This document shows, piece after piece, positions 36,314 to 63,038 of a DNA stretch of 64,000 bases. Position 1 is the stretch's first letter; each line of letters begins with the position of its first letter. This stretch comes from Candidatus Bathyarchaeota archaeon (GTDB lineage: Archaea; Thermoproteota; Bathyarchaeia; TCS64), in NCBI GenBank assembly GCA_963769425.1, contig CAVYLP010000003.1, positions 227,705 through 291,704 of the forward strand, in the 5' to 3' direction. Under the pieces are notes generated by a model that was not told where the DNA came from, did no database searches, and saw nothing but the letters and a program-made list of their open reading frames with translations. The position numbers were made by a program, and so were the translations under genes.

Positions 36314-36550
36314 TCGATTCCTAGTGGCAGGTGCAAAAAGTGATGAATTTCCGGGATACCACCCTACTAGGAATCCACACCCAACCAGCCAGTGAGCCAT
36401 ACCACCCTACTAGGAATCAGATTCCTAGTGGCAGGTATCAGAGGGTCGAGGTGAGCACTCCGCGATTCCACCCTACTAGGTATGGGATTCCTACCCACAG
36501 GTGCGAGTCATACCATGCTACTAGGAATCCGGTTCCTAGTGGCAGGAATC
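36314..36550. repeat. Array I: eight 19-21-bp quasi-palindromic units, three arranged as head-to-head pairs
   Basis: Units start at 36316, 36355, 36398, 36420, 36464, 36486, 36509 and 36531; e.g. CATACCACCCTACTAGGAATC-A-GATTCCTAGTGGCAGGTATC. Confidence 0.9.
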
Positions 36551-36783
36551 CACGCGGGGTTAGTTGCCATGAGGAAATTCCACTATTTAATCGCCCTAAA
36601 GGGACACAGGAAGATCCATTCGGGGCTTTCGCACTATCTATTCACTATAGATACACGAGTTCGCCCTGTAATTTTGATTTTTTTCGCAGCTTTTTAACCC
36701 CCACTCGTCGAGGTCCAGAACAAATAATAATCGGTTAACTGTTGTTAATTAAAATAGAGCTAAAAAGGCTAGCTTTAAGGAAC

Positions 36784-37020
36784 TCAGCCGGATTTCGATT
36801 TGAACATGGTGAAACCGCAGTTTCCGCATGTGTAGCGGTCACCGTGGTCGGCCATGAAGTATCCGCGCCCACACCTGTTGCAGAAGGGCCTCTTCCTCTC
36901 CAACTTACCGTCCTTGATCTCGTACTTCTTGTAGATCGAGTCGGCGCCCTTCTTCGGCTTCTTCTCAGCCGGTTTCTTATCCGCGGGCTTCTTGCCCTGT
37001 GGTGGTGGTGTTTGAGCCAT
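36784..37020 (-). CDS. rps27ae: 30S ribosomal protein S27ae (eS31)
   Basis: [21 protein letters not shown]. Confidence 0.96.
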
Positions 37021-37364
37021 TACTTCTTCTCCTCCTCAGGCGCAGCGGGGGCGGCGGCGGTGGCGGGCTTCTCCTCGGCCTTCACGGCCTCCTTCCCCTT
37101 GTTGCGGATGATGATATACTTGGGCTCCACTGCCTCCGCCGTCGCCGCGTCGTTATAGACGTGGGCGAGGCCAGTCGTCACCCTTGTACCAGACTTCGCC
37201 TCCAAGACGCGGACGTAGACGTTATCGAGCTCGGTCCTCATTAGGACCGAGATCTCACGCCTGACATCGGCTCTGCTCGGAGTGGAGGCCTCAGTAACCT
37301 TGAAGGCTAACTCCTTTCTACCAACCACCTTGTTGATCTTGGTGGATGTTAACTCCAGCTTCAC
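37020..37364 (-). CDS. rps24e: 30S ribosomal protein S24e
   Basis: [23 protein letters not shown]. Confidence 0.94.
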
Positions 37365-37367
37365 TGT

Positions 37368-37853
37368 CTATTTCATCTCCATTCGGTTGAGGAATCCCCT
37401 CGCCCAGTCCCGCCTCTCGTCGGAAACGGTCACTACAACAAGCCCCTCGTGGGGCTGGCCGTAGGCTATCACCGATCCGATAGGCATCTCAGCCAACAGC
37501 GGGAGGACCAGGAGGTCCTCTTCACCTTCCACGACTACCGCCACCCGCCTTTTAAGCGTTACCGCGGCCCGGAGGACGAGCCAAGCCTCCGCGTTGATCG
37601 TCGCCGCCTCGTTGGGGACGTGTATCTCCTTCAAACCATGCTCGACCGGCTCGACTACGGCCCTGAGCGTCTTGCCATCAACCACAACGATATCGGGGAA
37701 CAGCCCGGCGCAGATGAGGTTGGCCGCGACGAAGTCCCCGACAACTGCGAGGAGCGGTGGCTTTACCTTGAGCTTCTCCTTGAGACGGACGGCTGTATCC
37801 TTCGGCTCACCTCGGTAAAGTTCGCCGAGGGGCGTCTTCAACTCGATACGCAT
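37368..37853 (-). CDS. GTP-dependent dephospho-CoA kinase (DUF359)
   Basis: LK.PLG, VGD, DGKT.R, GEEDLL, YGQP.EG; position between spt4 and rps24e. Confidence 0.92.
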   Translation of the reverse strand: MRIELKTPLGELYRGEPKDTAVRLKEKLKVKPPLLAVVGDFVAANLICAGLFPDIVVVDGKTLRAVVEPVEHGLKEIHVPNEAATINAEAWLVLRAAVTLKRRVAVVVEGEEDLLVLPLLAEMPIGSVIAYGQPHEGLVVVTVSDERRDWARGFLNRMEMK

Positions 37854-37905
37854 AGATTCGGGTAGAAGCAGAGTCTTGATCTGGGGGAGGCTTGGATCCT
37901 TGTTC

Positions 37906-38091
37906 TTAGCGTATCTTGAGGGCGTAACGCCCCGCCTCTTTGATCTTCATCTTCTCAGCCAACTGGCTCTTGGATGGGTCGAGTATGATGACAAATCCGA
38001 GGAAGTCCTCGCTTAGCTCCGAGCCCTTGCAGACAGGGCAGACGTTCTCGTCGGTAATTATCTTACAAGTTCTGCAGGCTTTGAGTGGCAT
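37906..38091 (-). CDS. spt4: Transcription elongation factor Spt4 (RpoE2)
   Basis: ACRTC...CPVC...SQLA...GRYALK. Confidence 0.95.
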   Translation of the reverse strand: MPLKACRTCKIITDENVCPVCKGSELSEDFLGFVIILDPSKSQLAEKMKIKEAGRYALKIR

Positions 38092-38666
38092 TACTTCTTC
38101 TTCTCCTCCTTGGGGGCATCCATCGCTTTGACCTCTGCGTCGATCCAATCGATCTTGCCGAGCATCGGCTGGCGAGCCGTGACACCGATCTTGCCTGAGC
38201 TCCTGCCCTTGGGGAAACTGACGGCGACCATCCTCACCCTGAAGAGGTCACCCCTCTGAATGGTTCGCCCGCTCTCCTTGCCGAGGAGGATGCCCTGCCT
38301 CTCATCGTAGCTGATGAAGTCATCCATCAACTGGCTGACGTGTAGCAGCGCGTCCACCGGCCCGATCCTGAGGAAGGTACCGAAGTCAGCGACCTCGACC
38401 ACCTCGCCCTCAACAATCTCTTGTAGCTGTGGGAAGAAGGTCATGATGCTGAAGGTAACCTGATGGTGTGTCCCACCGTCACCTGGAACGATGCGACCTA
38501 TGGGGTTGACCTCGACCTTGATGACCGAGATGACGTAACCGAGGTCCTCGTCGACGAGCCCCTCGTATTTACCGCGTAGCTCCTCGTAAGCTGCGGCGTC
38601 GAGTGGCTGGCCGAACTTGTTTGGACTTATCCTGATGGTGTCCTTAAGGGTGACTAGGTTGAACAT
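38091..38666 (-). CDS. rpoE1: RNA polymerase subunit E' (Rpo7)
   Basis: PGDGG, GPVDALLHVSQ, RQP.LGKIDW. Confidence 0.96.
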   Translation of the reverse strand: MFNLVTLKDTIRISPNKFGQPLDAAAYEELRGKYEGLVDEDLGYVISVIKVEVNPIGRIVPGDGGTHHQVTFSIMTFFPQLQEIVEGEVVEVADFGTFLRIGPVDALLHVSQLMDDFISYDERQGILLGKESGRTIQRGDLFRVRMVAVSFPKGRSSGKIGVTARQPMLGKIDWIDAEVKAMDAPKEEKKK

Positions 38667-38716
38667 CGCATCGCCTCAATTTAGCCGGGGTTGATTCATA
38701 AAAACGTTCCTGAAGC

Positions 38717-39442
38717 TCACAGTTCTATGAGCACCTCGAAGGACTCCTTGCTGATGATCTCTCCGAGGTCCTTCTTCCACTCGTCGCCGACGGCAACTAG
38801 GATGTATATCCCCGCGATGTCGGCGCGCTGGTTCCTTACGAGGTCGACGAGCGCCTTCACGGTCTCTCCGCTGCGGACGACGTCGTCGATGATGAGTATG
38901 CTGTCTTTCTTCTTGAGGGAGGCCTTGGGGACGTACATCGTCTTTCTCATCGCCGAGCCCTTGGGGATGAAGGACTCCTCTAGGAAGTCGTTTATCCCGA
39001 CCTCTCTGGTCTCTTTCGCGACTAGGAGGTCCACATCAAGGAGATTGGCGACGAGGGTGGAGACGGGTATGCCGTCCACAGCCGCCGTGAGAACCTTCGT
39101 CACGCGGCGCCCCGCGAACTTCTCCATCGCGTAGTTCGCCATGATCTTTAACCAGGTAATCTCCGCGACGAGGGGCGTGTTGTCGAAGTAACCCTCCTCG
39201 TCGAAGTTGATCCTCTTCTTTAGTTCGGCCTTTATGTCCGTTATTTCCATTAGCTTCTCGTATAGGCCCTGGGCCCTGTCGTAGCTCGGGAGGACGTGCC
39301 CCCTCATGTACCTGCTGAGTATTGGCGGGCTGAGGCCGAGGTAGTCGGATAGTTCTTGATATGTGTGACTCTCGCTCGCGACCTTCAGGAGGTCGGTGAT
39401 CATCATTCTATATTTTAGTTCCCGTACCCTCGTCTCTGCCAT
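38717..39442 (-). CDS. HTH + phosphoribosyltransferase protein (PurR-like)
   Basis: N-terminal HTH (TYQELS...LSRY), PRPP motif LIIDDVVRSGET. Confidence 0.88.
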   Translation of the reverse strand: MAETRVRELKYRMMITDLLKVASESHTYQELSDYLGLSPPILSRYMRGHVLPSYDRAQGLYEKLMEITDIKAELKKRINFDEEGYFDNTPLVAEITWLKIMANYAMEKFAGRRVTKVLTAAVDGIPVSTLVANLLDVDLLVAKETREVGINDFLEESFIPKGSAMRKTMYVPKASLKKKDSILIIDDVVRSGETVKALVDLVRNQRADIAGIYILVAVGDEWKKDLGEIISKESFEVLIEL

Positions 39443-39466
39443 TCACATCATCCCCAGCTGGCGGAG

Positions 39467-39559
39467 CGGGCCTGAGGGGATTTGAACCCCTGACCAACGG
39501 CTCTCTTCGACCCTAAGGTCCTAAAAGGCCGACGCTCTTCCTTGCTGAGCTACAGGCCC
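39467..39559 (-). tRNA. tRNA-Lys(TTT) with 19-nt intron (39503-39521) at 37/38
   Basis: GGGCCTG/CAGGCCC acceptor; BHB formed by CTTT/GAAG with a GACC-TTAG-GGTC hairpin. Confidence 0.93.
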
Positions 39560-39739
39560 ATGGCCCTAAGCGTTAACCCATTAGGACAAACATGGTATTT
39601 AACTGTTTTTGGTTTTGCTTTAATTGTTTAATATAAATGCACTAATCGGTTAAATTTACACACGGGTGCAAGGAGGGCATAGAAGGGGTACCTCGACATA
39701 CTTATTAGACCGCTCTTGTTTATCCCTCTGTTAATCAGC

Positions 39740-39833
39740 GCGGTCGTAGTCCAGCCTGGTAGGACGCCAGCCCCCCACGAGTGTTTCTCGGGGAAAGTTG
39801 GTGACCCGGGTCCAATTCCCGGCGACCGCACCA
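39740..39833 (+). tRNA. tRNA-Gly(CCC) with 18-nt intron (39778-39795), CCA encoded
   Basis: GCGGTCG/CGACCGC acceptor; BHB formed by CCCC/GGGG; C33 and C55 atypical. Confidence 0.9.
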
Positions 39834-39834
39834 C

Positions 39835-41025
39835 TTACTCGGACCTGAGAGCCTCAACAGGGTTGAGATTCGCGGCCCTCCAGGCGGGGTAGATCCCGGA
39901 TAGGGTGGAGGTCAGGACGGCGAATCCTACCACCATCACCCCGATCATGGCAGATGGGACGGCGGTGATCCCGACAATCGAACCTATGGCTCCACTTAGC
40001 CCGAATCCTACGAGCACACCCAGTAGACCGCCTATGAGGCCTGTGAATACTGCCTCGGAGATGAACATCAATAAGACGTGCTTGCTCTTCGCTCCGATAG
40101 CCTTCATGATACCTATCTCGCGTGTGCGCTCCATGACGCTGATGGTCATGGTGTTAATTATCCCGATGCCCGCGACCACGAGGCTTATGGCGGCTATCCC
40201 GCCGAGGACTGCTTGAATCGAACCTACGACCTGATCCATCACAGCCTTAGCTGACTCGTAAGTCACCGCGCTGTAGCCCTTGCCCATCTTTGTCTTGATT
40301 GCTGCAGCGGTGGATGCGACGTTTTCAATTGAGTCGGCCTGCGCCATGACGTAAGTGAACTGGTTCCCCGTCTCGTAGAACTGTTGGGCGTCTCTTAGCG
40401 ACATGGCAATGGAGTCGTCGAGGTTCACACCGAAACTGGCGCCCGTCTTGGCGAGGATACCCACAACGCGCACCGTCAGGGTCTTGTCCACGTCGTTCAC
40501 TCTCGTGTTTAGAGTTATCCTATCACCAATGCCTAGGACGGGTTTTGTCTGGTCCTGCGGTAGAGCGACGTTCGCCCCGATTATCACTACGCCGTTATCA
40601 CTCCTGACGAGCCCTCTCCCATCAGATATTTCGGTATTCTGATTGATCTTCTGGTAATCCTCGGTTATGCCGAAAGTCGAGACGCGGTAAATCTTCCCTT
40701 GAAGCGTGTATGTTGCCATCTTGTTCGCAATAATCGGAGTTGCCGCAATGACGTGTTGTACCTTCTCAATGGTTGTAAGGTCCCTTAACGTTAATGTGCC
40801 GATCGACATAGTCCCCCCGGTGAATCCACCGGGGACTACCATGATGTTTTGAGGGCCAAAGATCTGGAGCTGGCCACTGATGTTATCGCTGAGTCCTTGG
40901 GTTATGGAAACGAGGCCGGTCACAGCCGCGCAGCCGATAAGTATGCCGATCAGGTTCAGAGCGAACCTGAATTTCCTCGACCTGACGCTCTCCCAGGCCG
41001 CGCCGAAGATGTCTCCAATGTTCAA
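39835..41025 (-). CDS. MacB/FtsX-type ABC transporter permease
   Basis: GIGIINTM.ISV.ERTREIGIMKAIGA, PAWRAA.LNPVEALR. Confidence 0.95.
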   Translation of the reverse strand: MNIGDIFGAAWESVRSRKFRFALNLIGILIGCAAVTGLVSITQGLSDNISGQLQIFGPQNIMVVPGGFTGGTMSIGTLTLRDLTTIEKVQHVIAATPIIANKMATYTLQGKIYRVSTFGITEDYQKINQNTEISDGRGLVRSDNGVVIIGANVALPQDQTKPVLGIGDRITLNTRVNDVDKTLTVRVVGILAKTGASFGVNLDDSIAMSLRDAQQFYETGNQFTYVMAQADSIENVASTAAAIKTKMGKGYSAVTYESAKAVMDQVVGSIQAVLGGIAAISLVVAGIGIINTMTISVMERTREIGIMKAIGAKSKHVLLMFISEAVFTGLIGGLLGVLVGFGLSGAIGSIVGITAVPSAMIGVMVVGFAVLTSTLSGIYPAWRAANLNPVEALRSE

Positions 41026-41037
41026 GGTTTATTCATC

Positions 41038-42564
41038 TTATTGGAGTCCGAATAGCCTTCTCAGCCAGCCCCATATTCCGCCGTTGTTTGAGGTGGTCGG
41101 GATTACCGTTGATGGGCTAGTGACGGTGAGAGGTAAGCTGATCGTGGCGTTCTGCTGGTTGTTCCTGCTGTCGAGGTACGTGATCCTCAGCTTCAGGCTA
41201 TAGTCGCCCGTCGTTGAGCTGTTGCTTATGGCGTACTTCAGCGTGAACGGGACGGGGCTATCCGGGTCTATCGCGCCGATGTACTCGGTGCCGCCGGCGA
41301 TCTGCTTAACAGGGCCCTCCGGCAGAACCTGAATCCTCGTGAACTCAACCCTGCCCGTGCCAACCAGCAGCAGGTCCGCCTCAAGCGTTTGAGTGCTCCC
41401 CCTCTCCGCCGTGAGCACAAGGTCCTCCATCAGGGAGAACTGGACGAGGTTCTCGACGGGGACAGTTATCGTCTCCGTTGCTGTGCCCTGAAGGCCCTTT
41501 GCGTCTATGTACTTCACGCTGACCGTTAGCGGGAAGTCACCCGCTGTGGCGGCGCCGCTGAGCAGCAGGATGTACGTGAACTTCGCATTCCCTCCAATGG
41601 ATAGGTCGCCGAGTGATACGGTTGTGGGGTTCAGAGGCGAGATCAGACCCTTGACATCCGGGCTCAGCACGGCCTTCACGTTGTAGACCGCGGCGTCAGC
41701 ACAGGATGCCTGCAGGTCAATGCTGAATTGTTCGCCGGGGATGACCTTACTCGGGTTCATGTTCGTTATAGTGATGACTGGGCTCTTCGTCTGGACCGCG
41801 GTGGTGACTTCCAGTGGGACGCTGAGGGTCTGTTTTGCCTCGATTCCCGAGTCGTTTGTGAACCATGCCTGCGCCGTCAGAGAGTAGGCGCCTATCGGGG
41901 TGTTCTCAAGCGCCTTGATCTTCAACTCATAAGATGTTGATCCACTCGCCTTCAGCTCGGTGAGGTGGTTGTTGATGCCGTCGGTTAAGGTGAGGAGAGG
42001 GCTAGCCGAGGCGAGGGTTATGTCGACATCCTTTACACTAGTGTTTCCCATGTTCTCCACAGTGAGGGTGATCGTGTTCTCCACTCCGGGTGTAATCTTG
42101 CTCCCAGAGGTTGTTATCCTCAAGGCGGGGAGCGAAGGTTGGTTAACCACGACGGTTAGTGGGACCGTCACGGTCACGATGCCTCTGCCAGCCCGTAGGT
42201 AGCTAAGAGTCATCGTGAGTGGATAGGCCCCAACAGCTACGCTCTGATCGACCATCACGGTAGCTGAGTAACTGGCCGAGGCTCCGATCGCGATCTTGTT
42301 GATGACGTACTGGGATCCATCAAGGATGGATACGCCGGGCGTCGTTGAGCTTATCAGTGCCTCGATCTCGGTGACGTCGAAGTTGCCGCCGTTATAGAAG
42401 GTTATTCCGATGCTTCCCTTGGACCCTGCTGCCAACGAGGTGTTGGTTGTGGTTACCTGGAGGTGGGGGATGTAGTCCTCCGCGTATGTGGTCGCTATCT
42501 GGCCCGCTAGTAGGCAGGCGAATAGGATCGTTATTAGATACTTTTTTCCGTTCATTTCTATCAC
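41038..42564 (-). CDS. S-layer-domain (COG1361-like) secreted beta-sandwich protein
   Basis: Signal peptide, repeated N.G...G.Y.L Ig-like modules, between ABC ATPase and permease. Confidence 0.82.
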   Translation of the reverse strand: MIEMNGKKYLITILFACLLAGQIATTYAEDYIPHLQVTTTNTSLAAGSKGSIGITFYNGGNFDVTEIEALISSTTPGVSILDGSQYVINKIAIGASASYSATVMVDQSVAVGAYPLTMTLSYLRAGRGIVTVTVPLTVVVNQPSLPALRITTSGSKITPGVENTITLTVENMGNTSVKDVDITLASASPLLTLTDGINNHLTELKASGSTSYELKIKALENTPIGAYSLTAQAWFTNDSGIEAKQTLSVPLEVTTAVQTKSPVITITNMNPSKVIPGEQFSIDLQASCADAAVYNVKAVLSPDVKGLISPLNPTTVSLGDLSIGGNAKFTYILLLSGAATAGDFPLTVSVKYIDAKGLQGTATETITVPVENLVQFSLMEDLVLTAERGSTQTLEADLLLVGTGRVEFTRIQVLPEGPVKQIAGGTEYIGAIDPDSPVPFTLKYAISNSSTTGDYSLKLRITYLDSRNNQQNATISLPLTVTSPSTVIPTTSNNGGIWGWLRRLFGLQ

Positions 42565-43250
42565 TTGAACCTCTTCTCTCCCGCGATCTCCCCGTCCCGG
42601 ATCTCTACGAGCCGGTCGGTGGCCTGGGCCACGTTGGGATCGTGGGTGATGAGTACGAAAGTCTTGCCCTGCTCCTGGTTTAGGTGGCGGAGCAGACCCA
42701 TGATCTCCTGACCGGTTTTGGAGTCTAGGTTACCGGTCAGCTCGTCGCATAGGAAGAGTGGTGGGTCATTCGCGAGGGCTCTCGCTATCGCAACTCTTTG
42801 CTGCTCTCCTCCGCTGAGCTGGTTGGGCCTGTGGTCGATCCTGTCGCCGAGCCCAACTGATTCGAGGAGTTTCTTCGCCCTCTCCTCCCTCTGCTTGTGC
42901 GGGGCACCGCTTATAGAAAGTGGGAGCTCCACGTTGTGGAGGGCGTCCATTCTCTGGATGAGGTTGAACTGCTGGAAGATGAAGCCGATCTCCTTGTTTC
43001 TGAGGTCGGCGAGCCCGTTGTCGTTCAACGTCGATATATCTATCCCGTTTATGAACACCTGGCCGGAGGTTGGGCGGTCGAGGGCTCCGAGCATGTTGAG
43101 TAGAGTGGACTTCCCGCTACCGGAGGGGCCCATGATGGCCATGAACTCCCCCTTCTCGATCTTGATGTTGATGTTCTTTAGCACTATAAGTGGGTGACCA
43201 CCCTGAAGATACTCCTTCACTAAGTCACGTGTCTCTATGACGAGTGTCAA
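42561..43250 (-). CDS. ABC transporter ATP-binding protein (LolD/MacB-like)
   Basis: [35 protein letters not shown]. Confidence 0.96.
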
Positions 43251-43252
43251 GA

Positions 43253-43792
43253 CTATGCCTCCAGCTCTGATATGGATTTGTCAAGGTCCTCGAGGCGCTG
43301 TGACATCTTCTTGCGCATCCCCTTCAGGAATAGGAGTCGTGTATCCTTGTCCACGCTCTCGTCGAAGAATCCGATGATGTTTCCGAACATATTAGTGTCG
43401 TCGCCTGCCATCCATGAGAATGATGAAATAATTTTCTTTTTTAACTCAGGAGAAATCCACTTGATGAGCACAGTGATGAATCTGGCGCTGAACCGTGCGC
43501 TGCTCTCCTGGTGTGAGCCTATCTGCTCGAGGAATTTTCGGCCATTCTCGGTTATCTGGTAGAAGTCCACGCCGTCGCGCACAAGTAGCTCAATGAGGCC
43601 TCTTCTCTCGAGACTCTTGAGCGCTGGGTATAGAGTCCCTGTCTTGGGCTCCCAGACTCCTTCGAACGCTTCCTTTATGGACTTGAGCATCTCATAGCCG
43701 TACTTCGGTGAGGCCTCCAGCTGTATGAGTAGCAGGAATTGTAGTGGGCTGATCCTTGGGGGCGTCGGCATAGCGTTTCGGAGGGGGGACAA
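43253..43792 (-). CDS. PadR-family transcriptional regulator
   Basis: YGYEM, GTLYPALK.LE..GLI, YQITE.G. Confidence 0.92.
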   Translation of the reverse strand: MSPLRNAMPTPPRISPLQFLLLIQLEASPKYGYEMLKSIKEAFEGVWEPKTGTLYPALKSLERRGLIELLVRDGVDFYQITENGRKFLEQIGSHQESSARFSARFITVLIKWISPELKKKIISSFSWMAGDDTNMFGNIIGFFDESVDKDTRLLFLKGMRKKMSQRLEDLDKSISELEA

Positions 43793-43999
43793 TAGGTTGA
43801 CCTCTACCTAGTTGATTTTCTACTAGGGGGCTGGGGCATCTTAAAAACATTATGGACATACGTTTTGACCCCTCTAAACCAAATTAACTAAGCGAATTCA
43901 ACGGATTAATTTGGCATCGTCTTCAAACGAGCGAGTATGTGAGTGCTTGCTGAGCGTGTGTGCTTATCTACGGGTGCCCTACTCAGTAATGCGGACATT

Positions 44000-44881
44000 A
44001 TGAAGATTCTCGTCCTCTACGGCTCGGTAGCGAGCAGGAACAGCGAGGAATTGGTCGAGGCCGCGAAGAATAAGGGATATGAGGTCGTCGGGGGGAAGAC
44101 ATCGGAAGTCTCAAGCGAGGTCTCCCCATCTGGCTCACGGTTCTGGCTTAAGGATATCGAGATAACCGACTTCGATGTGTGCCTTCTCCGTAGCTTCGGC
44201 CCCGGTTCCTGCGAGCAGCTTACCCGGCGTATAAGTCTCATCGAGCACATGGAGGTGGCGGGTATCAGGGTCGTCAATCCCTGCTACGCATTCAGGAGAG
44301 CGAGAGACAAGTACGCGACCCAGTACACCCTCAAGGCCGAAGGACTACCCATCCCCACAACATACACGACGGAAGGCATGTCAGACGCGTACCGAGTCTC
44401 CGAGGCTTACGGGGATTTCATCTACAAGCCGATACTCAGCAGCATGGGGAAGGGTAGCATGAGGTTCACCGACCCCGACCTCGCCTACAACGCCTACAAG
44501 ATGCTGGACAGGTACAGCCAGCCCCTAATCCTCCAGAAGTATGTGCAGAATCCCGGCAGGGACATCAGGGTCTTCGTGATAGGGGACTCAGTAGTCGGCT
44601 CCGCCTACAAGTACAGGGCGGAGGGGAAGTGGAAGACGAACGTTGCTCAGGGGGGGCATATGGTGGAGGAGAAGGTACCAGAGGACATACTTGAACTCGG
44701 GCTTAGGGCTACACACACGATGGGGCTCGATTACTCGGGTGTAGACATTATTGAGTCGCCGGACGGCCCGATTATTCTCGAGGTGAATGGCTCCCCCGGA
44801 TGGCAGGCGCTCAACCTTGCCACAAACATCAAGGTCGCTGACGAGATAGTTAGGTACGCGGTGAGTCTAGTATATGGGTGA
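44000..44881 (+). CDS. RimK/LysX-family ATP-grasp ligase
   Basis: RDK, KP..SSMGKG, QKYV...DIRV, WKTNVAQGG, LEVN.SPG. Confidence 0.92.
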   Translation: MKILVLYGSVASRNSEELVEAAKNKGYEVVGGKTSEVSSEVSPSGSRFWLKDIEITDFDVCLLRSFGPGSCEQLTRRISLIEHMEVAGIRVVNPCYAFRRARDKYATQYTLKAEGLPIPTTYTTEGMSDAYRVSEAYGDFIYKPILSSMGKGSMRFTDPDLAYNAYKMLDRYSQPLILQKYVQNPGRDIRVFVIGDSVVGSAYKYRAEGKWKTNVAQGGHMVEEKVPEDILELGLRATHTMGLDYSGVDIIESPDGPIILEVNGSPGWQALNLATNIKVADEIVRYAVSLVYG

Positions 44882-45547: not shown

Positions 45548-45599
45548 GTTGAATCGTGGATTAAGCGAGGAGGGGAGTTGATAAAGGTGACGCCGAGGG

Positions 45600-52503: not shown

Positions 52504-52529
52504 CCCCGCTTTTCAGGGATTTTTTATAA

Positions 52530-54892: not shown

Positions 54893-54914
54893 TTAGGCCG
54901 CCCCCTTTTCTATC

Positions 54915-56192
54915 TTACCCAAGCTCCTCGCCCATGACCTCGACGGCGTGGTCGAGCTCCTTCGTCGTGATGACGAGCGGCGGCTGGAACCTCATCACGT
55001 TCGCCTTGACTCCTCCGGTGCCGACGAGGACGCCCTTCTTGCGCATCCCCTCCTTGAGTTTGTTCGTCTCCTCGGCTGCTGGGGCCTTCGTCTTCCTGTC
55101 CTTGACGAGCTCGACGCCAACCATGAGCCCCTTGCCCCTGACGTCGCCGATGAGCGAGTGCTTCTCCATCAGCTCCCTGAACCTCTTCGTGAGGTACTCG
55201 CCCTTCTTGGCGCTGCCCTCGACGAGTTTCTCCTCCTTGAATATCTCGAGGTTCGCTATCGCAGCGGCACAGCAGACAGGGTTCCCGCCGAATGTGGAGA
55301 GGTGGTCACCGGGCTGAAGGGAATCACCCACATCACTCCTCGCGATGCAGGCGCTCAGCGGGAAACCCGCTGCTATGCCCTTCCCCATAGTCAGAATATC
55401 GGGCTTCACATCATAGTGCTCGATGCCGAACATCTTCCCCGTGCGCCCGTAGCCGCTCTGAACCTCGTCGACGATGAGCAGGCTCCCGTGTGTGTCGAGT
55501 ATCTTCTTCAGAATCGGGAAATACTCCTTCGGCGGTACGATGATACCGCCCTCACCCATTATGGGCTCCGCGATCAGCGCCGCCACGTTGTCGCTGCTGT
55601 GGTAGTTGATTATGTCCTCGAGCCTCCGTGCGCAGAGCACGCCACAGCTCGGGTACTCCTTCTCGAATGGGCACCGGTAGCAGTAGGCCGCCGTGTTGAA
55701 GCTCACCCCGCTGAGGTACGGGCCCATGTCGTAGCGCCTCCGCTTCGACTGACCCGTGATGCTCAGCGTCCCAACTGTACGCCCGTGGAAGCTGCACTCC
55801 AGCGCGACCATCTCCTGCTTCTTCGTGAACTTCTTCGCCAGCTTCACCGCCGTCTCGTTCGCCTCAGCGCCACTGTTGCCGAAGAAGGTCTTCACCAGCC
55901 CCTTCGGGCTGATCTCCGCAAGCCTCTCCGCCAGCTCCGTCACCACGGGGCTGTGGTAGACGTACGGGCCATAGTGGATCAGCTTCCCCGCTTGGTCCTG
56001 CACCGCCTTCACAACCTTCGGCGGGCAGTGGCCGGCGTTGACGACGCTTATTCCCGCGAAGCAGTCGAGGTACTCCTTACCCTCCATGTCCACGAGGGTG
56101 GCGCCGTGCCCCCCCACAACAGCAATAGGCTCAAGCTTCGTGAAGCTGAGAATTCTGTACTTCTCGTCCTTTGAGAATACGTCGCTCGACAT
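54915..56192 (-). CDS. Class-III PLP aminotransferase (beta-alanine/omega-amino-acid type)
   Basis: NSGAEANE, SFHGRT, EPIMGEGG, DEVQSGYGRTG, STFGGNP. Confidence 0.9.
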   Translation of the reverse strand: MSSDVFSKDEKYRILSFTKLEPIAVVGGHGATLVDMEGKEYLDCFAGISVVNAGHCPPKVVKAVQDQAGKLIHYGPYVYHSPVVTELAERLAEISPKGLVKTFFGNSGAEANETAVKLAKKFTKKQEMVALECSFHGRTVGTLSITGQSKRRRYDMGPYLSGVSFNTAAYCYRCPFEKEYPSCGVLCARRLEDIINYHSSDNVAALIAEPIMGEGGIIVPPKEYFPILKKILDTHGSLLIVDEVQSGYGRTGKMFGIEHYDVKPDILTMGKGIAAGFPLSACIARSDVGDSLQPGDHLSTFGGNPVCCAAAIANLEIFKEEKLVEGSAKKGEYLTKRFRELMEKHSLIGDVRGKGLMVGVELVKDRKTKAPAAEETNKLKEGMRKKGVLVGTGGVKANVMRFQPPLVITTKELDHAVEVMGEELG

Positions 56193-56294
56193 GACGAATC
56201 AAGAATAGTATAGCACTGGCGATAAAAAGGCTGAGACTGGCTACTGCCCGGTGAGGCGGCGGATAATGATGACTAGTCAAGATACGGCCCGCAT

Positions 56295-56570
56295 TTAGAC
56301 CCCTTGCTCGATTAACTGCCTAAGCGCGGCAACCTCGCCCTTCAACTCGCTAAGTTCCGCGTCCCTCAATAATGGGGTAGCTACGCCGACAGCCGACACG
56401 ATAACACGGCCCAAACCCATTTTCTCAGTATTCGCGCTATTCTTCAGATACAACTTTGTGAATGCTATATGGCAAACCTCATCAAGATAAAGCAATAATG
56501 ACGCCCTATCAAGACTCGGCTTATCACGCAACTTCTCAAGGAATACCTTGGGCTTTTCAACCGCAACCAA
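56295..56570 (-). CDS. Hypothetical helical protein with C-terminal coiled coil
   Basis: LLRDAELSELKGEVAALRQ; start uncertain. Confidence 0.55.
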   Translation of the reverse strand: MVAVEKPKVFLEKLRDKPSLDRASLLLYLDEVCHIAFTKLYLKNSANTEKMGLGRVIVSAVGVATPLLRDAELSELKGEVAALRQLIEQGV

Positions 56571-56669
56571 CTCAGTAAAATTTACAGGCGGAAATACCTT
56601 ACATATTTAGATGTGTCGATGCATGGCGGCCAGGCGTTGCCTCCCCGCGTTAGGATGTAAGTGATAGAA

Positions 56670-57035
56670 CTATGGGATATGCAATGTTTGAATCCTATTA
56701 TGTTTCTTTATCTCATCCTGTGTTTTGTTTTCTTTATCTGCTTTTTTTTGGCAATCATCTTCGTAGAGATATGCTCCTAAAATATTCACTGATTTGTATT
56801 TCACCCCATTCTTGTTAAGCTCATCTTGTTTCTTATTTCTGAATTCTCTTATTGCTCTATCAGTGTATTTCGCGTCTTCCGGTTTAGTGCGGAATAGAAC
56901 CAATTTTATTTCAATATACTCGCATTCTGTGATAGATTCCTCAATTGGTTTATCTTGGTAAATGATTTTATAGGGTATCCAATATTTGAATAGTTCACCC
57001 TCTAAAATGTTATCCGATGTTCTCTTTCCACTCAT
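56670..57035 (-). CDS. Hypothetical protein
   Basis: 121-aa ORF open in AT-rich DNA. Confidence 0.6.
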   Translation of the reverse strand: MSGKRTSDNILEGELFKYWIPYKIIYQDKPIEESITECEYIEIKLVLFRTKPEDAKYTDRAIREFRNKKQDELNKNGVKYKSVNILGAYLYEDDCQKKADKENKTQDEIKKHNRIQTLHIP

Positions 57036-57124
57036 CTCAGGTCGATTAAGGTTTATCAGTCAATGGAGATTAAATTTTCTGTTAGGCGTGTTTAATCTCA
57101 AATTTTCCATCCGTGGGCGTAAAT

Positions 57125-57349
57125 TCAAGAAAAGGGATTCCAACTTTTCTTCTCTTTACATCTATGATTTTCAGGTATATGGTGCGAAGAACACAACACT
57201 TTACCGCATTTATGACACTTGTAGGCATTCTCAGATTTAGTTTGCATAAACCGTTTACCACAAAAACTACATCTAAGATAATGGTCACCCTTGATGGTAT
57301 TCGACGTATTTGATTTACTAGTTTTTTTAAACCAATTTAGCGGATTCAT
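57125..57349 (-). CDS. AN1-type zinc finger protein
   Basis: CSFC...CHKC-x4-C-x2-H-x5-H-x-C. Confidence 0.8.
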   Translation of the reverse strand: MNPLNWFKKTSKSNTSNTIKGDHYLRCSFCGKRFMQTKSENAYKCHKCGKVLCSSHHIPENHRCKEKKSWNPFS

Positions 57350-57364
57350 ATCCCCGCCACAAAA

Positions 57365-57922
57365 CGAGAACTGTCAATTTAATATTTGAAACCTTGGCGA
57401 GCGAGCGCACCCGATCCTCATCATGATAGTCTATTAATAAATTTTTAATATAAATGGAGTTCTAAATAAAAAAAGAGGATAGTATTGAATCTTAATTCTA
57501 TTATTTTTCCGACTGTTATCGTAGTTATATGTGTTGCCCTCCACGAATTAGGTCATTTTACAATGGCTAAATACTTTAAAAGATCAGCATGGTTTAGAGT
57601 AGGAAAAGTAAAAGGTATCCCTGCCATCATCACGTCTCATAAAAGAGAATTTGAGATTCATACTTATGTAGATTTGAAAAGGGCATTTAAAGAAGAGATT
57701 AAAATAACTCAAGCAGGTCTTCTAAGTGTAGTTTTACCACTATTCTTAATTTGTCTTTATCCCGCATTCTGGCAATTCTTTTTTATTGTCATCTTACTTT
57801 TTATGATTTATACTATTTGGGAAATAGAATTTATAATTAATATCGAAGTCGAAAAAATTGAGAAATATAGTCTTTTCTGAATATTTGCATTAAGGCGAGA
57901 ACTGTAAATTTAATATTTGAAA
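57365..57922 (+). repeat. 27-bp direct repeat pair (57365-57391 and 57896-57922)
   Basis: CGAGAACTGT[C/A]AATTTAATATTTGAAA, 26/27 identical. Confidence 0.85.
57485..57880 (+). CDS. Membrane HExxH protein (M50/site-2 protease-like, short)
   Basis: ICVALHELGH in a TM segment, later I..AG motif and two more TMs. Confidence 0.7.
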   Translation: MNLNSIIFPTVIVVICVALHELGHFTMAKYFKRSAWFRVGKVKGIPAIITSHKREFEIHTYVDLKRAFKEEIKITQAGLLSVVLPLFLICLYPAFWQFFFIVILLFMIYTIWEIEFIINIEVEKIEKYSLF

Positions 57923-57936
57923 TTTAGTACATATTG

Positions 57937-58473
57937 TTAAGCGAATAGTAAGGAAGGGTAGAAATAATAACTCCAATAGTTTATGCCAATTAAAATAATG
58001 CTTAATATAATTAACATATAGAATGGTTTATGATCATTAAATATTCTAGCCATATAGTTTCTCCATCGCATTTTGAGTTCTGGTTTATTCTTATATTTCC
58101 CAGTTCTTTGAGAAAACTCAGAGGCCGCTCTTTTTAAAAGATATAGTTGACTAAAATCGTAATTATCTGAATATTTTCCTTTTTTGCTCTCCTCTTTATT
58201 CGCTTCTATAAATCCTTCCCCAGTATATGTTTTAACATACATAACTGCCTCAATAAGGATTGAATAGTATCCTGCTCTGAGTAAAAAATAAGTCATACTT
58301 AAAAGAGACATCAATATAAACACAAAGAAGTTAAAATGAAAAGTGCTTATTATATCCCGCGCACCTAAAAGGGCTATTACTGTAGCTACCAAATAGCCAA
58401 TATGAGCATGACTTTTTTGAGTAAACAAATTAATTAAAGTTGATCGAGTATTTTCTAATTCGTCCGCTACCAT
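57937..58473 (-). CDS. Hypothetical membrane protein
   Basis: 178 aa, three hydrophobic segments, AT-rich. Confidence 0.65.
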   Translation of the reverse strand: MVADELENTRSTLINLFTQKSHAHIGYLVATVIALLGARDIISTFHFNFFVFILMSLLSMTYFLLRAGYYSILIEAVMYVKTYTGEGFIEANKEESKKGKYSDNYDFSQLYLLKRAASEFSQRTGKYKNKPELKMRWRNYMARIFNDHKPFYMLIILSIILIGINYWSYYFYPSLLFA

Positions 58474-58661
58474 AATGTTTCAAATACAAGTTAATTATTA
58501 AAAATTATCGGGCATCGGGGTCGAGATATAACATCTCCCAAAGAGTGGCCCCGGCGTCCTCCATTTACTAAAAATGATGCGCGCGCGCCGAGGTGGCAGC
58601 GGCTCTCTGATACAACTCGATCGAGGAGAGTTCCGGGTGGGTGCTCATGAAACTAGGGGGC

Positions 58662-59456
58662 TCACGGCAGCGGTTGGAGCTCGCTCGGGAGTGGCTCGTG
58701 CTCCACCCAGGCCCTGATCATGGCGGCGAAGAGGTCGGGCTTCTCCATCCCCCAGTTGTGCCCGACGCCGGGGGCGACGACGCAGGGCACACCGGGGTGC
58801 TCCCCCCGAATCATGCGCGCCGACTTACTGATCAGCCCCGACTCCATCTCCCCGCAGACGACCAGCAAGCCGGACGCATCGGCTATGCTCGGCAGGGGGT
58901 AGGTCATGCTCTCCACGATCACCTGGGTGTAGAAGTCTGGGGTCATGAGCCTAGTGTCCGCCCTGAACTCGGCCTCGTACTCATCCGGGACGCTGAGCTG
59001 CCTCATGTTGGCGTGCACCATGAAGCCGGTGTTCTGGATGGGGGAGTACAGGAGGATTACCAGCTTCAGTAGGGGAGCCATGAGCCTTACGCTGCCGCTC
59101 GGCGACGTGTTCGTTCCGCTGACGATAACCCTGTCCATTAGCTCAGGGCACGTGCTCAGCAGCTGCAATGCGACCTGGCCGCCCAGGGATAGACCAACGA
59201 CGTGGACACGACCTATGGGGACGATTCCCCTGATTAGATTCGCGACCTCATCGGACGCCTTACTTATACTGATTGGGCCGTCAGCCGGGCTCAGCCCGTG
59301 CCCGGGCAGGTCCGGGACTATGCAGCGGTACCCGGGGAGCCTCTGGACCTGGGGGAGCCACGACCAGCCACTCATGCCACCCCCTGGGATGAGAACGATC
59401 ACCGGCGCATCCGAGGGGCCAGAATCCAAGTAATGTAGCAAGGAAACGCCCATCAC
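58662..59456 (-). CDS. Alpha/beta hydrolase
   Basis: PGGG, DLPGHG, GLSLG nucleophile elbow, GH. Confidence 0.92.
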   Translation of the reverse strand: MMGVSLLHYLDSGPSDAPVIVLIPGGGMSGWSWLPQVQRLPGYRCIVPDLPGHGLSPADGPISISKASDEVANLIRGIVPIGRVHVVGLSLGGQVALQLLSTCPELMDRVIVSGTNTSPSGSVRLMAPLLKLVILLYSPIQNTGFMVHANMRQLSVPDEYEAEFRADTRLMTPDFYTQVIVESMTYPLPSIADASGLLVVCGEMESGLISKSARMIRGEHPGVPCVVAPGVGHNWGMEKPDLFAAMIRAWVEHEPLPSELQPLP

Positions 59457-59460
59457 CCCT

Positions 59461-60381
59461 TTATTTTGGGCCAGATGACTTCGCAGCCTCCTCTTTGAGC
59501 TTCCACTTCGTGTACTCCATGAGGCCGATTATATTTGGGATGGCGGTCCTGCGCCTGCTGTCGTCTTCATCGATGCTGAGGCGGAGGATGGGGTCCTGCT
59601 CCTTTAGTAAGTCCCAGACCCCGTTCAGGTCCATCCCCTCTTTCACGCCACGCTCAACGATCTCGGCCCAAGTCTGCAACTCCCCCCTGTAGAACCTGAG
59701 CTTCTTCACCGCATCGTAGGCGTAGCCGAAGTGGCTGTAGCAGACTATCTCGGGACGGAGGTCGATGAGCTTGTCGAGGGTCTCGATGGCTTTGTCGGTG
59801 TTGAAGGGGGGTGGCGTTATTGGGAAGTTGTTCCCACTCCTCTTGTTGAAGCTCCCCCCGCAGTCCCCAAGGATTATTATCTTGTAGTCGGGCTCCCAGA
59901 AGCTCTGCCCGTGGCTCGCGTGCCCCGGCGTCCAGAGAACCTTGAGTGTCGCCCCCTGTAGATCGAGGACCTCCCCGTCCTTCGACTCCTGGATCTTCAT
60001 CGGGTTCAGCCCCTTAACTTCCCCGTACTTCTCGTAGGCGGGGCCGAAGAACTGCTTCGCGGAGGCAGCGAGTCGACTAGGGTCGACTAGGTGCTCCACC
60101 GCCTTCGGGTGGGCGTAGACGTCGGCCTCGGGGTGTGCCTCTATGAGCTTCCACGCGCCACCGCCGTGGTCGAGGTGGATGTGGGTGAGCCCAACATAGC
60201 GTAGTTGCCTTATCCCCAGCTCGCGAAGCCCCTCGATGGCGCCGGGTATCTGGGTCGTCGGTCCAGGGTCGATGAGCATAGGCTCCTCCCCCTTCACCAC
60301 GTATGTCCCCAGCACCCCCTGGGCACCGTGGTATGGTGAGTCGATGAGGTAGACGGGGCCTAGAATCTGCTGGGTGAGCAT
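59461..60381 (-). CDS. Metallo-beta-lactamase-fold hydrolase
   Basis: IDPGP, THIHLDHGGG, TPGHASH, SHFG. Confidence 0.92.
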   Translation of the reverse strand: MLTQQILGPVYLIDSPYHGAQGVLGTYVVKGEEPMLIDPGPTTQIPGAIEGLRELGIRQLRYVGLTHIHLDHGGGAWKLIEAHPEADVYAHPKAVEHLVDPSRLAASAKQFFGPAYEKYGEVKGLNPMKIQESKDGEVLDLQGATLKVLWTPGHASHGQSFWEPDYKIIILGDCGGSFNKRSGNNFPITPPPFNTDKAIETLDKLIDLRPEIVCYSHFGYAYDAVKKLRFYRGELQTWAEIVERGVKEGMDLNGVWDLLKEQDPILRLSIDEDDSRRRTAIPNIIGLMEYTKWKLKEEAAKSSGPK

Positions 60382-60406
60382 ACTTCACCCATGCCTCGTC
60401 GCGTTT

Positions 60407-60991
60407 TTAATCCCTTCGAGTGTTGGACCAGGCGAAGGAGTTGACTATGGCGTTTAGGACGATGCTTGCGCCGATTATAATTATGAAGCCAGGGAGCAGG
60501 GCGGAGCCACTTATGGACCCCTGCCCGTATAGCATGATCAAGTATGCTATGGCGAAGTTACCGAGGGCGCTGACCATGTTGCCGATTCCCCTCATCACCC
60601 GCCCGGAGGCCATCCTTAGCCCACCCTCGAGTATCCCCCAGGCGCCCATGATCACGAAGAAGAGGAAGATGGGCTGCGCCAGGATCAGTGGGAGCATGGT
60701 AGGGCCCGCGGTCCAGGTGCGGAACCAGGCAACGATCTCGTCCCAGACCCACGGGTACTGGAGGTACACCCACGCGATGGCAATGAGGAAGACGCCGAAC
60801 CCGACCCCGTTGAGGTAGTCGGGGCCGCGGTCGAGCCTCTCTACGCGATCCATGCGTCTCTCCCACCTGCGCTCCCACCGGCCCTCGAATGGCGGGGTGG
60901 GGGGAACAGGCTCACCCATCTTGTGCCCGCACCTATCACAGAAAGCGGCGTCGTCGGGAAGCTCCTTACCACACTTCGGGCAGTAGATCAT
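60407..60991 (-). CDS. Zinc-ribbon membrane protein
   Basis: YCPKCG...FCDRCG followed by four TM segments. Confidence 0.82.
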   Translation of the reverse strand: MIYCPKCGKELPDDAAFCDRCGHKMGEPVPPTPPFEGRWERRWERRMDRVERLDRGPDYLNGVGFGVFLIAIAWVYLQYPWVWDEIVAWFRTWTAGPTMLPLILAQPIFLFFVIMGAWGILEGGLRMASGRVMRGIGNMVSALGNFAIAYLIMLYGQGSISGSALLPGFIIIIGASIVLNAIVNSFAWSNTRRD

Positions 60992-61092
60992 GCCAACCAC
61001 TGAGATGCGAGGGTTTAGGGAGAGATATAAGGATAGGGAAAACCGTGCCAACCCATTTTAACCCGGCAAACCCACTAACCCCCTGAACAAAG

Positions 61093-62037
61093 ATGCGCGT
61101 AGCCGTCACAGGGGGAGCGGGATACATAGGCTCCACGCTGATAAGGAATCTACTCGCCGAGAGGCACAGTGTCGCCTCCTTAGACAATCAAGCGAAGGGG
61201 GACTACTGCCACCTACGCGACCTTAACGCAAAGAGCCTCACCTTAATCGAGGGGGATATAAGGAACGCCGGTGACCTCGACACGATCCTCAAAGGGGCCG
61301 ACGCGGTGGTCCACATGGCGGCACTCTCCGACCTCGACGTCTGCAACGAAGACCCCGAGGAAGCGGTCTCTGTCAACATCTATGGCACCCACAAGGTGCT
61401 AGAAGCCGCCGAGCGAAACGGGGTTCGGAGGCTCATCTTCTGTAGCAGCGCGGCCATCTACGGCGTCCCCTCGAGCCTGCCCGTCACCGAGAGGCACGCC
61501 CTCCACCCCCTCAACCTCTACGGCGTCACAAAGCTCGCGGGGGAGAAGCTCATCGACGCCCACCACGTGAACCATGGCCTTGAGACCGTCAACCTGAGGT
61601 TCGGAAACGTCTACGGCGTCGGACTCTACACGAGCTGGGTCGGCGTCATCCCCAAGTTCGTCGCCCTCGGCCTGGAGGGAAAGCCGCTCACAGTATACGG
61701 GGACGGCGAGAGCACCCGCGACTTCGTCCACGTCGAGGACATATCCAGGGCTATAACGTTGGGCCTGACGAAAGAGGGCATACGCAACGAGACCTTCAAT
61801 ATCGGCAGCGAGACCACTACGGTGAACAAGATAGCGAGCCTCGTCGCCTCGGAGATCGAGAAGGCCACTGGGAAGCGCCCAGAGGTCACCCACCTCCCCC
61901 CGCGACCCGGGGAGACCAAGGAGTTCAGCTACAACACATCCAAGATAGAGAGAGCCTTAGGATTCAAGCCCAAATGGAGACTCAGGGACGGTGTCAGGCA
62001 GATAATCGAGTACCGGTTGAAGAACCAGAAGCAGTGA
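61093..62037 (+). CDS. NAD-dependent epimerase/dehydratase (GalE-like)
   Basis: TGGAGYIG, SSAAIYG, YGVTK, RDFVHVED. Confidence 0.94.
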   Translation: MRVAVTGGAGYIGSTLIRNLLAERHSVASLDNQAKGDYCHLRDLNAKSLTLIEGDIRNAGDLDTILKGADAVVHMAALSDLDVCNEDPEEAVSVNIYGTHKVLEAAERNGVRRLIFCSSAAIYGVPSSLPVTERHALHPLNLYGVTKLAGEKLIDAHHVNHGLETVNLRFGNVYGVGLYTSWVGVIPKFVALGLEGKPLTVYGDGESTRDFVHVEDISRAITLGLTKEGIRNETFNIGSETTTVNKIASLVASEIEKATGKRPEVTHLPPRPGETKEFSYNTSKIERALGFKPKWRLRDGVRQIIEYRLKNQKQ

Positions 62038-62046
62038 CGGCGGGGA

Positions 62047-62277
62047 CTACTCGAGGACCACCATCGTCAGAGTTGACCTGACGTGGTTGAGGCGCCTAAC
62101 CTTGCTCGTTATGACGTCCTTGATCTCCTGCATCGTGGGGGCTTCCAGACGGACGACGAAGTCGTAGACCCCATAGACGCCATATACCTCCTTGACCTCG
62201 GGTATCTCCTTCAGAGCCTTGCTGACATCGGTCCCCTCACCGAGATCAGTGTTGATCAAGACAAATGCAACGCTCAT
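62047..62277 (-). CDS. Lrp/AsnC ligand-binding (RAM) domain protein
   Basis: AFVLI...VYGVYD...VRSTLTM, 76 aa. Confidence 0.9.
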   Translation of the reverse strand: MSVAFVLINTDLGEGTDVSKALKEIPEVKEVYGVYGVYDFVVRLEAPTMQEIKDVITSKVRRLNHVRSTLTMVVLE

Positions 62278-62713
62278 GGATGAACCTCAAATGATCCCTC
62301 AACGGGAACTGATTTAACATTTTCTAGGGTTGAGACGTGCGGGAACATATTGTAAATACAGTCAGGCTATGATATTGCCATGTTCATGTTTCTAACGATA
62401 TAAAAGTAAGTCAAGACCATCAATCATCCAAAGCACCCTGAACCTAGACCCAATCCGACTGAATTTCCATCAGCCTTCTCCGGTAAGGTTGGTAAGTATG
62501 AATCGGCGCGTTTTTCAAGTCTCCCCCATGATGGTAGCATAGTATAAGCGTTTTACAGAATAGCTTAATGACTCCTCACCGGTCCTTTGCGATGATTCAT
62601 CTGAGATTGAGTTCACCCGTATGGGTATCGACTGGAGAAGTGGAGGTTCGTTGGGTGGAGTAACATGTTTGCTGGTTGGTCGCGTATGCCTCGCTGGTAG
62701 GAATAAGGAAAAA

Positions 62714-63038
62714 CATCACTTTTTGCACCTGCCACTAGGAATCGAGACTCGTTACGCTAACCAACAGTTGGTCTGTGGTACACAGTAAGGGGGTACAACG
62801 GTACCCGGTAGGAGGGTACTTGGTACCATGTAGGAGGGCACCGACGGTACCCAGTAGGGTGGTACCATGGTACCCTGTAGCGTGGAACCGGCGCACGGGA
62901 TCTGTGTAACATGGTACCATGTAGCAGGGAACTCGATACCACGTAGTATGGTATATGGTACCCTGTAGGGTGGTACGGGGGACCCATTAGGGGGGTATAA
63001 GGTTTTTTCCACGTCTCGGTACCATGTAGCAGGGTACA
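62714..63038 (+). repeat. Array II: ten co-oriented 21-bp units plus a 32-bp inverted copy of the start of array I
   Basis: GGTACC-NNGTAGNNN-GGTACN units at 62777, 62800, 62822, 62846, 62869, 62913, 62935, 62957, 62979 and 63018. Confidence 0.92.

Follow-up and report, generated by a model that had tools for sequence, protein, structure and literature searches.

An inverted 32-bp pair in a Bathyarchaeota genome belongs to a dispersed family of intergenic repeats resembling bacterial REP elements

Introduction

Two perfect copies of a 32-bp sequence lie in inverted orientation, 26.4 kb apart, in a stretch of 64,000 nucleotides (the window; C3:227705-291704) from the metagenome-assembled genome (MAG) of a Bathyarchaeota archaeon (2.55-Mb assembly, 6 contigs, 91% complete). 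The sequence, TCGATTCCTAGTGGCAGGTGCAAAAAGTGATG, occupies window positions 36314-36345 on the plus strand (locus A), and its exact reverse complement is located at 62714-62745 (locus B). The question raised by this pair is whether it marks a system that organises or rearranges the chromosome. An earlier note, made from the sequence alone, proposed the core sites of a DNA-binding, segregation or recombination system and suggested that the inverted cores could invert the intervening segment.

Our analysis indicates that the 32-mer is the best-kept end piece of a small intergenic repeat and not a new chromosome-organising system. On balance, we think it likely that the family is a lineage-specific group of non-autonomous, modular hairpin repeats similar to repetitive extragenic palindromic (REP) sequences and bacterial interspersed mosaic elements (BIMEs), spread by insertion and local tandem amplification through a candidate factor. 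In the following, G000 denotes the host genome and C1-C6 its contigs, and the congeners named individually are G002, G004, G008, G012, G014, G015 and G016. Distribution was assessed among 18 genomes of the genus (G000 included), 150 other genomes of the class and a separate set of 41 related genomes. Many of these are fragmented assemblies in which repeats were possibly dropped; empty orthologous sites are independent of this fragmentation.

Genomic copies of the 32-mer

A search of the window with up to 3 mismatches returned only these two copies, against a mean of 0.00 in 100 dinucleotide-preserving shuffles, confirming the perfect inverted pair described in the earlier note. The weaker similarity that it had placed about 35 nt further on was also recovered, with CCAACCAGC at 36381-36389 (+) and 62671-62679 (-), 36 and 35 nt past the 32-mer, respectively; by blastn, the similarity between the two loci reaches 39 nt at 95%. 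The whole genome contains 10 copies of the 32-mer with 0 to 5 mismatches, 3 of them exact. When these 10 copies are compared in pairs, identity averages 0.89 inside the 32-mer against 0.29 in the 20 nt upstream; three successive 40-nt blocks after the 32-mer average 0.56, 0.73 and 0.60. The step from 0.29 to 0.89 defines the 32-mer as a sharp 5' boundary and as the best-kept module. Every core copy opens, at its 5' side, a non-coding element about 125-260 bp long, and these core-led elements fall into two subtypes that split directly after the 32-mer and reconverge further on.

Iterative blastn together with a census of repeat units identified a family of 36 intergenic loci, two of which (C6:373644 and C6:614965) look like chance. 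The genome-wide count of copies suggested in the earlier note thus supports a dispersed element (10 core copies, about 36 family loci) and not a two-locus system. The earlier note was also right that no simple recent duplication links the two window loci. They are two of the 10 core copies and carry differing arrays on opposite sides of the 32-mer: the array of locus A lies 3' of the core and has GATTCC/GGAATC and GATACC/GGTATC arms, and that of locus B lies 5' of it and has GGTACC arms.

Fourteen of the 36 loci sit between convergent genes. The 47 nearest flanking ORFs (open reading frames) match 83 Pfam families, none of which has more than 2 members among the best 25 of the 83, and all of these ORFs look housekeeping or metabolic. 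The earlier note had placed its protein elsewhere, and indeed there is no linked partner among these ORFs. Around 29 loci, the pieces common to different loci are at most 712 bp long and non-coding; with no larger shared piece, there is no coding parent copy among them. A 1730-bp match in this comparison arises from two query windows that overlap. On contig C4 (9.5-410 kb), 7 of 8 loci have the CTAC strand of the unit described below on the minus strand, and the GC skew of the contig is mostly positive. The other contigs are mixed in repeat orientation; the bias on C4 could hint at a link to replication, with too few loci to judge.

The repeat unit

The pattern CC-N3-CTAC-N2-GG has 218 matches on both strands of the genome, comprising 91 units in 25 clusters and 127 singletons. 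Clustered units nearly always share one orientation per cluster, and the singletons have random-looking flanks. The unit is 21-23 bp long with the consensus KRTWCC-MYS-CTAC-WR-GG-WAYC, in which an asymmetric CTAC centre (GTAG on the other strand) is placed between complementary arms. The centre was imposed by the pattern in this census; in a repeat search without an imposed motif, GTAG was found in 7 of the 9 copies of the locus B array. The units have been amplified locally into head-to-tail arrays and inverted doublets.

The arms differ by array (GGTACC; GATTCC/GGAATC; TGTTCC/GGAACA; GATCCC/GGGATC), and complementarity is kept throughout. For 87 units (66 distinct) with 6-bp arms, after exclusion of 4 units from two probable chance clusters, arm pairing was calculated on the distinct units as 75.3% of cells, compared with 70.2% in shuffles (none of 500 as high as the observed figure) and 9-43% once the partner is slid, a statistic in which two CC/GG pairs are fixed by the pattern and which is inflated by the relatedness of units within one array. 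Four of the six arm pairs change on both sides, for example from GC to AU and from AU to UA. Variable arms that stay complementary are better explained by a hairpin than by a double-stranded recognition site of fixed sequence. Reading the 262-bp element of locus A shows a forward and an inverted unit that pair, on the CTAC strand, into an 18-bp hairpin including one G-T pair. In tandem arrays, the GTAG strand folds better than the CTAC strand (6 of 6 arrays).

Insertion and distribution among relatives

Blocks of units and the 32-mer boundary module have been inserted into many intergenic spacers. Orthologous spacers are empty at all four informative loci, namely locus A, locus B, C4:177833 (no insertion in G008) and C6:437442 (none in G012 or G002), the latter two being read at about 80% flank identity without exact junctions; for a fifth locus, C3:378708, the congener loci do not include the right flank. 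At locus A, the synteny of S24e, S27ae and DUF1805 genes is retained in 13 of 14 congener loci. The spacer between S27ae and DUF1805 is about 530 bp long in G000. It measures 25-160 bp in 10 congeners, and 3 others have unrelated sequence of 334-457 bp there. At locus B, the gene order epimerase, small ORF and thiolase is retained in congeners; the small ORF-thiolase spacer measures about 1219 bp in G000 and 173-216 bp in 11 of 13 congener loci, the other 2 being without one marker. The repeat part of the locus B insertion is a mosaic at 62495-63060, and the outer parts of the 1030-bp insertion are single-copy, yet contain decayed units. A possible 2-bp TA duplication is present at the edges of this insertion and could be explained by chance.

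The locus A element consists of the core, 4 forward units interleaved with 3 further inverted (R-type) units to form inverted doublets, and a 3' module ending in ...CCACGCGGGGTTAGTTGCCATGAGGAAA. The copy at C3:378738-378999 shares 94% identity with it across 264 bp. Contigs from related strains (about 95% identity) carry locus A as well, and one of them (X2) runs from the DUF1805 gene through the 32-mer. In contigs X1, X3 and X5 from three runs, locus A is 117 bp shorter and lacks two unit pairs: window positions 36439-36557 are replaced by CATGC, and the result resembles the short copy C4:177844-177967. The shorter form is a module-number variant.

The inverted arrangement could also be read as the two ends of a 26-kb mobile or invertible segment, such as a composite transposon, an integrated element or a recombination switch. 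The perfect 32-bp inverted pair at a distance of 26.4 kb is what such a segment would offer; its interior, however, encodes S27ae and S24e, tRNAs, Ile-tRNA synthetase, an ABC permease and metabolic enzymes. In all four congeners with both on one contig (G016, G015, G004 and G014), the DUF1805 and epimerase genes keep their order, orientation and distance (20-25 kb); the genes along the 26 kb are thus ordered as in congeners lacking the repeats. Together with the DUF1805-S27ae junction in 13 of 14 congener loci, this argues against the inversion suggested in the earlier note. Eight more core copies lie elsewhere in the genome, and none of the 5 listed joints (contigs of 4 runs) changes strand at 36314-36345. 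A mobile or invertible segment is thus very improbable, and the inverted orientation of the window copies simply reflects two independent insertions in opposite directions.

Among the 41 related genomes, the locus A element matches G000 and G002 only. A two-unit pattern has 26 matches in G000, 3 in G002 and 0 in the other 16 genomes of the genus; it has none in the 150 other genomes of the class, and a reversed-pattern control also gave 0. The boundary module of G002 is diverged but recognisable (...CAGCCACGGGAGCTAAAATGGTGGTTTTTCGATATACC...), and the arms there are GATACC/GGTATC. Exact 23-mer and degenerate core patterns returned 0 matches in IMG/VR and JGI metagenome contigs. A simple scan aimed at CRISPR-like arrays likewise gave no output. 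Four single pattern matches in IMG/VR, which resemble chance or coding repeats, were rejected. In genome contigs, a three-unit pattern matched at least 117 stretches, mostly single chance matches or unrelated 21-22-bp bacterial tandem repeats; as the pattern itself selects for 21-22-bp tandem repeats, no inference is drawn from those matches. One of the matching stretches (L130) is the same sequence as L004 of G002 and adds no new occurrence. Searches of the literature on repeats, palindromes and MITEs (miniature transposable elements with inverted repeats) in Bathyarchaeota or Bathyarchaeia, and on REP doublets forming hairpins (REPINs) and REP-associated tyrosine transposases (RAYTs) in archaea, yielded no description of the family.

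Among the bacterial matches, several MAGs (L070 and L132 among the stretches) contain long 21-22-bp tandem arrays with a CTAC/GTAG centre, and four contigs (L068, L074, L125 and L133) of one Acidobacteriota MAG carry such arrays. These arrays may be clustered REPs; no kinship with the archaeal family is claimed, since the pattern selects for such arrays.

Arrays of double-stranded, iteron- or centromere-like binding sites for a protein that is encoded elsewhere and serves chromosomal DNA binding, segregation or the nucleoid would explain the spacing of 22-24 bp, about two helical turns, as well as the dyad arms and a 32-mer conserved above its surroundings. One sequence-specific protein is unlikely, however, where arms differ between arrays while remaining complementary. 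The 36 loci have no linked partner gene, and many units are decayed. The family is present in only 2 of 18 congeners, and its orthologous sites are empty. We therefore regard binding-site arrays as quite unlikely. The system proposed in the earlier note meets the same difficulty, as the family has about 36 loci beside unrelated housekeeping genes, was found in only these 2 congeners, has empty orthologous spacers at 4 of 4 informative loci and changes its arms between arrays.

Origin-recognition boxes of a replication origin would likewise take the form of repeated dyad elements in long spacers. The sequence TTCCTAGTGG may be loosely like the core of the origin recognition box (ORB). The 36 loci and the empty syntenic sites of congeners do not fit an origin, nor is there a clear skew switch at either window locus. 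Their neighbours are DUF1805, S27ae/S24e, epimerase and thiolase genes and not orc1/cdc6, for which no family search was made. We give this explanation hardly any probability.

Possible transcription

Some arrays may be transcribed from a promoter-like box recognised in the sequence, GTG-GAAAAAAC(C/G)TTATACC, which has 49 genome matches at up to 3 substitutions. At 25 of these, at least one unit follows, and the box always reads into the CTAC strand. A position weight matrix (PWM) built from 42 tRNA genes of this genome captured a motif like the transcription factor B recognition element and TATA box (BRE/TATA), which most of these genes have 41-43 nt upstream; the median score is 11.8 bits. 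On this scale, the box at locus B scores 10.6 bits, against a background in which 1376 of 5.1 million genome positions score at least 10, and most boxes score 4-7 bits. Within 150 nt after the array, a run of five T (T5) was found in 3 of 20 cases and a run of five A (A5) in 5 of 20, so T5 is not enriched; one 95%-identical element pair ends in two T5 runs. Rfam searches detected only the 2 tRNAs in the window at the gathering threshold and only one tRNA in six family loci at E<=1.

These features raise the alternative that the arrays are genes for small structured RNAs, in which the BRE/TATA-like box drives the CTAC strand and yields hairpins in tandem that share a conserved loop. An RNA-binding protein could, for instance, use such a transcript as its scaffold or be sponged by it, with the 32-mer region, which includes a T5 run, as the 3' module. 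The consistent direction of the 25 unit-followed boxes, the likeness of the locus B box to the tRNA promoters of this genome and the T5 runs of one pair are consistent with this alternative, and arm covariation around a conserved loop is expected of an RNA hairpin motif. In contrast, most boxes score low, T5 is no more frequent than A5 after the arrays, and the GTAG strand folds better than the promoter-driven CTAC strand in every array compared. No Rfam family was matched at the six loci, and a needed RNA would not usually be absent from the same sites in close relatives. Nor do core elements like that of locus A share an upstream promoter, their upstream identity being 0.29. We consider RNA genes rather unlikely.

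Mobilising enzyme and proposed mechanism

The insertion of hairpin repeats by a candidate factor, which we prefer, would proceed as follows. In single-stranded DNA or in RNA, one unit, or two inverted units, would form a hairpin; a putative structure-specific trans-acting factor would recognise the hairpin and its CTAC/GTAG centre, and the same factor would copy or move blocks of units. The family may at present be decaying without its factor.

Several results weigh against this interpretation. No Y1_Tnp (PF01797) match was detected in the 91% complete G000 at E<=0.001 or E<=10, and no TnpB was found in this genome. Three IS5-like DDE genes are present in G000, and an IS5-like element was rejected as parent because its ends are unlike the repeat element. 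No terminal inverted repeats were found at the ends of two 95%-identical pairs; the same unit, directly oriented, stands at both ends of the element. No target-site duplication has been established, locus B with its possible TA being the sole empty site at base level. The insertions exceed the recognisable repeat (1030 versus 565 bp at locus B, about 500 versus 262 bp at locus A), so a clean cut-and-paste of a defined unit is not shown. The inflation of the covariation statistic belongs here as well, as does the dominance of head-to-tail arrays, whereas head-to-tail dimers are described as rare in bacterial GTAG REP families in the cited passages of PMC3733652.

Other candidates for a mobilising enzyme are few. 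G000 contains one sub-threshold rve match and one tyrosine recombinase, which is near no family locus. G002 has one Y1_Tnp, and no units were seen on reading its 2.9-kb locus. No parent insertion sequence (IS) with the same ends was found among the IS5-like ends and the pieces around 29 loci, a comparison that did not extend to IS110-type ends. The earlier note had named a transposase-bearing parent and target-site duplications as signs against its own system; no such parent was found and no duplication is established. G000 also carries three IS110-type (DEDD_Tnp_IS110) genes, at C3:328944-329387, C4:252841-253284 and C2:122023-122340, two of which are located in a 1.68-kb duplication (93% identity), next to IS5-like DDE genes. 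In bacteria, members of the IS110 family can target REPs.

If the family is what we suggest, an uncultured sediment or peat archaeon has REP/BIME-like GTAG-centred repeats with no recognisable RAYT. This raises the questions of how such repeats spread in archaea, whether the family and the bacterial GTAG-tagged repeats converged, and whether the promoter-like boxes that the repeats scatter between genes alter the expression of their neighbours. In practice, the repeats will break short-read assemblies of the lineage and could be mistaken for regulatory or segregation sites. A more speculative and, in our opinion, unlikely extension is that the family is an archaeal REP/REPIN counterpart working without Y1/RAYT, in which promoter-bearing CTAC-loop hairpin arrays would be transcribed, and a putative structure-specific protein found only in this lineage would copy or bind them. 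If true, Bathyarchaeia-like archaea would have a new pairing of element and enzyme, or of RNA and protein.

Features and neighbourhood of the window loci

The features of both loci are listed in Table 1. The 62655-62713 part of locus B aligns with the subtype-2 copies C1:110216, C4:10103, C4:108114, C4:177935 and C4:409707.

Table 1. Repeat features and insertions at the two window loci (window coordinates)
Feature	Position	Strand	Basis or detail
Locus A, 32-mer core, 5' boundary module	36314-36345	+	One inverted (R-type) unit GATTCCTAGTGGCAGG, then TGCAAAAAGTGATG
Locus A, subtype-1 dispersed element of about 262 bp	36314-36575	+	Genome-wide blastn coverage >0 only from about 36300 to 36579
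Locus A, forward units	36355-36375, 36398-36418, 36464-36484, 36509-36529	+	Unit census
Locus A, R units	Starts 36316, 36420, 36486, 36531	R-type	Repeat search
Locus A, lineage-specific DNA between DUF1805 and S27ae genes (approximate extent)	36205-36700		Congener spacer comparison
Locus A spacer, decayed second core-like box TAGCCACAGGTGTAAAAACC	36209-36228		Inside 36205-36700
Locus B, 32-mer core, exact inverted copy	62714-62745	-	Exact match
Locus B, shortened subtype-2 5' part after core, TTTTTCCTTATTCCTACCAGCGAGG...CCAACCAGC	62655-62713	-	Aligns with subtype-2 copies
Locus B, further repeat module	62495-62654	-	Common to C3:176588-176827 (94% over 242 bp) and C4:318916-319078
Locus B, head-to-tail GGTACC-arm array, spacing 22-24 bp	62774-63038	-	8 strict units; 9 copies by repeat search
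Locus B, promoter-like box GAAAAAACCTTATACC within array, reading into CTAC strand	62994-63009	-	PWM score 10.6 bits
Locus B, whole 1030-bp insertion, between ...CTATGATA and AAAATCGG...	62375-63404		Alignment with 280-bp orthologous spacers of 5 congeners

Archaeal markers in the window include the ribosomal proteins S24e and S27ae, DUF359 and an unusually long tRNA gene of 93-94 nt, and the metagenome runs in which parts of this region occur carry peat and sediment labels. In G008 (L014) and G002 (L015), a small Cys/His-rich ORF is located between S27ae and DUF1805, where G000 has the locus A repeat. G000 retains only the first bases of the stretch holding this ORF, and the repeat may have replaced it.

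A 94-nt tRNA at 39466-39559 (-) received no name from ARAGORN (anticodon 'tt') and has an Rfam score of 58 bits; an archaeal tRNA with an intron is the probable explanation. Back to back with it stands a tRNA-Val at 39740-39833, which is also 94 nt long. A low-GC island was observed at 56000-59000 (GC 0.385-0.392 versus about 0.55-0.6 around it). Its three ORFs (56670-57035, 57485-57880 and 57937-58473) have no Pfam match, and the island may be foreign DNA.

Comparison with known systems

Iteron and centromere arrays, such as Rep iterons and plasmid parC, consist of direct repeats at a phase of about 22 bp. Unlike these, the present arrays have no adjacent partner gene, occur at dozens of loci and vary in their arms from array to array. 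BOX elements of Streptococcus pneumoniae are composed of a boundary module, variable tandem internal units and an end module, and they are not known to have a transposase or a described way of spreading. The present family agrees with them in both respects; sequence, unit size and host are unrelated.

Like prokaryotic MITEs, a group reviewed in PMC10969869, the elements are small, non-coding, multi-copy and intergenic, and they are missing from the same sites in relatives. They differ from MITEs in that their ends are direct repeats, a unit array of variable number lies inside, no target-site duplication is established, and no resident IS among those compared shares their ends.

The GTAG superfamily of REP, BIME and REPIN elements is treated in PMC3733652 and also covered by PMC3116915 and PMC2817692; the following relies on passages of the first of these. 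GTAG REPs have stems of 5-13 bp with alternative complementary stem residues and G-T pairs, form clusters, occur downstream of genes, and range in family size from tens to thousands (PMC3733652). The same passages list them for bacterial phyla only, whereas the host here is an archaeon; intergenic palindromes in archaea have been named REPs in a far looser sense, as used in the cited part of PMC12306157. The present family further differs in that no RAYT/Y1 transposase was found in G000 (E<=10), that head-to-tail arrays dominate, and that a non-palindromic boundary module (the 32-mer) and a promoter-like box are present. GTAG lies between the two arms of the unit and not at its outer end, and it would form an outside tag only if the stem spans neighbouring units.

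The family shares with REP, BIME and REPIN elements short hairpin-capable units with a conserved GTAG, stems of 5-6 bp and alternative complementary stem residues, as well as inverted doublets and clusters, an intergenic position often downstream of genes, species specificity and tens to hundreds of units. Its 21-bp units fall within the 20-40 bp expected of the imperfect palindromes of REPs, and 91 strict units lie in 25 clusters. Collectively, the repeat family resembles bacterial REP, BIME and REPIN elements more closely than an IS-derived MITE.

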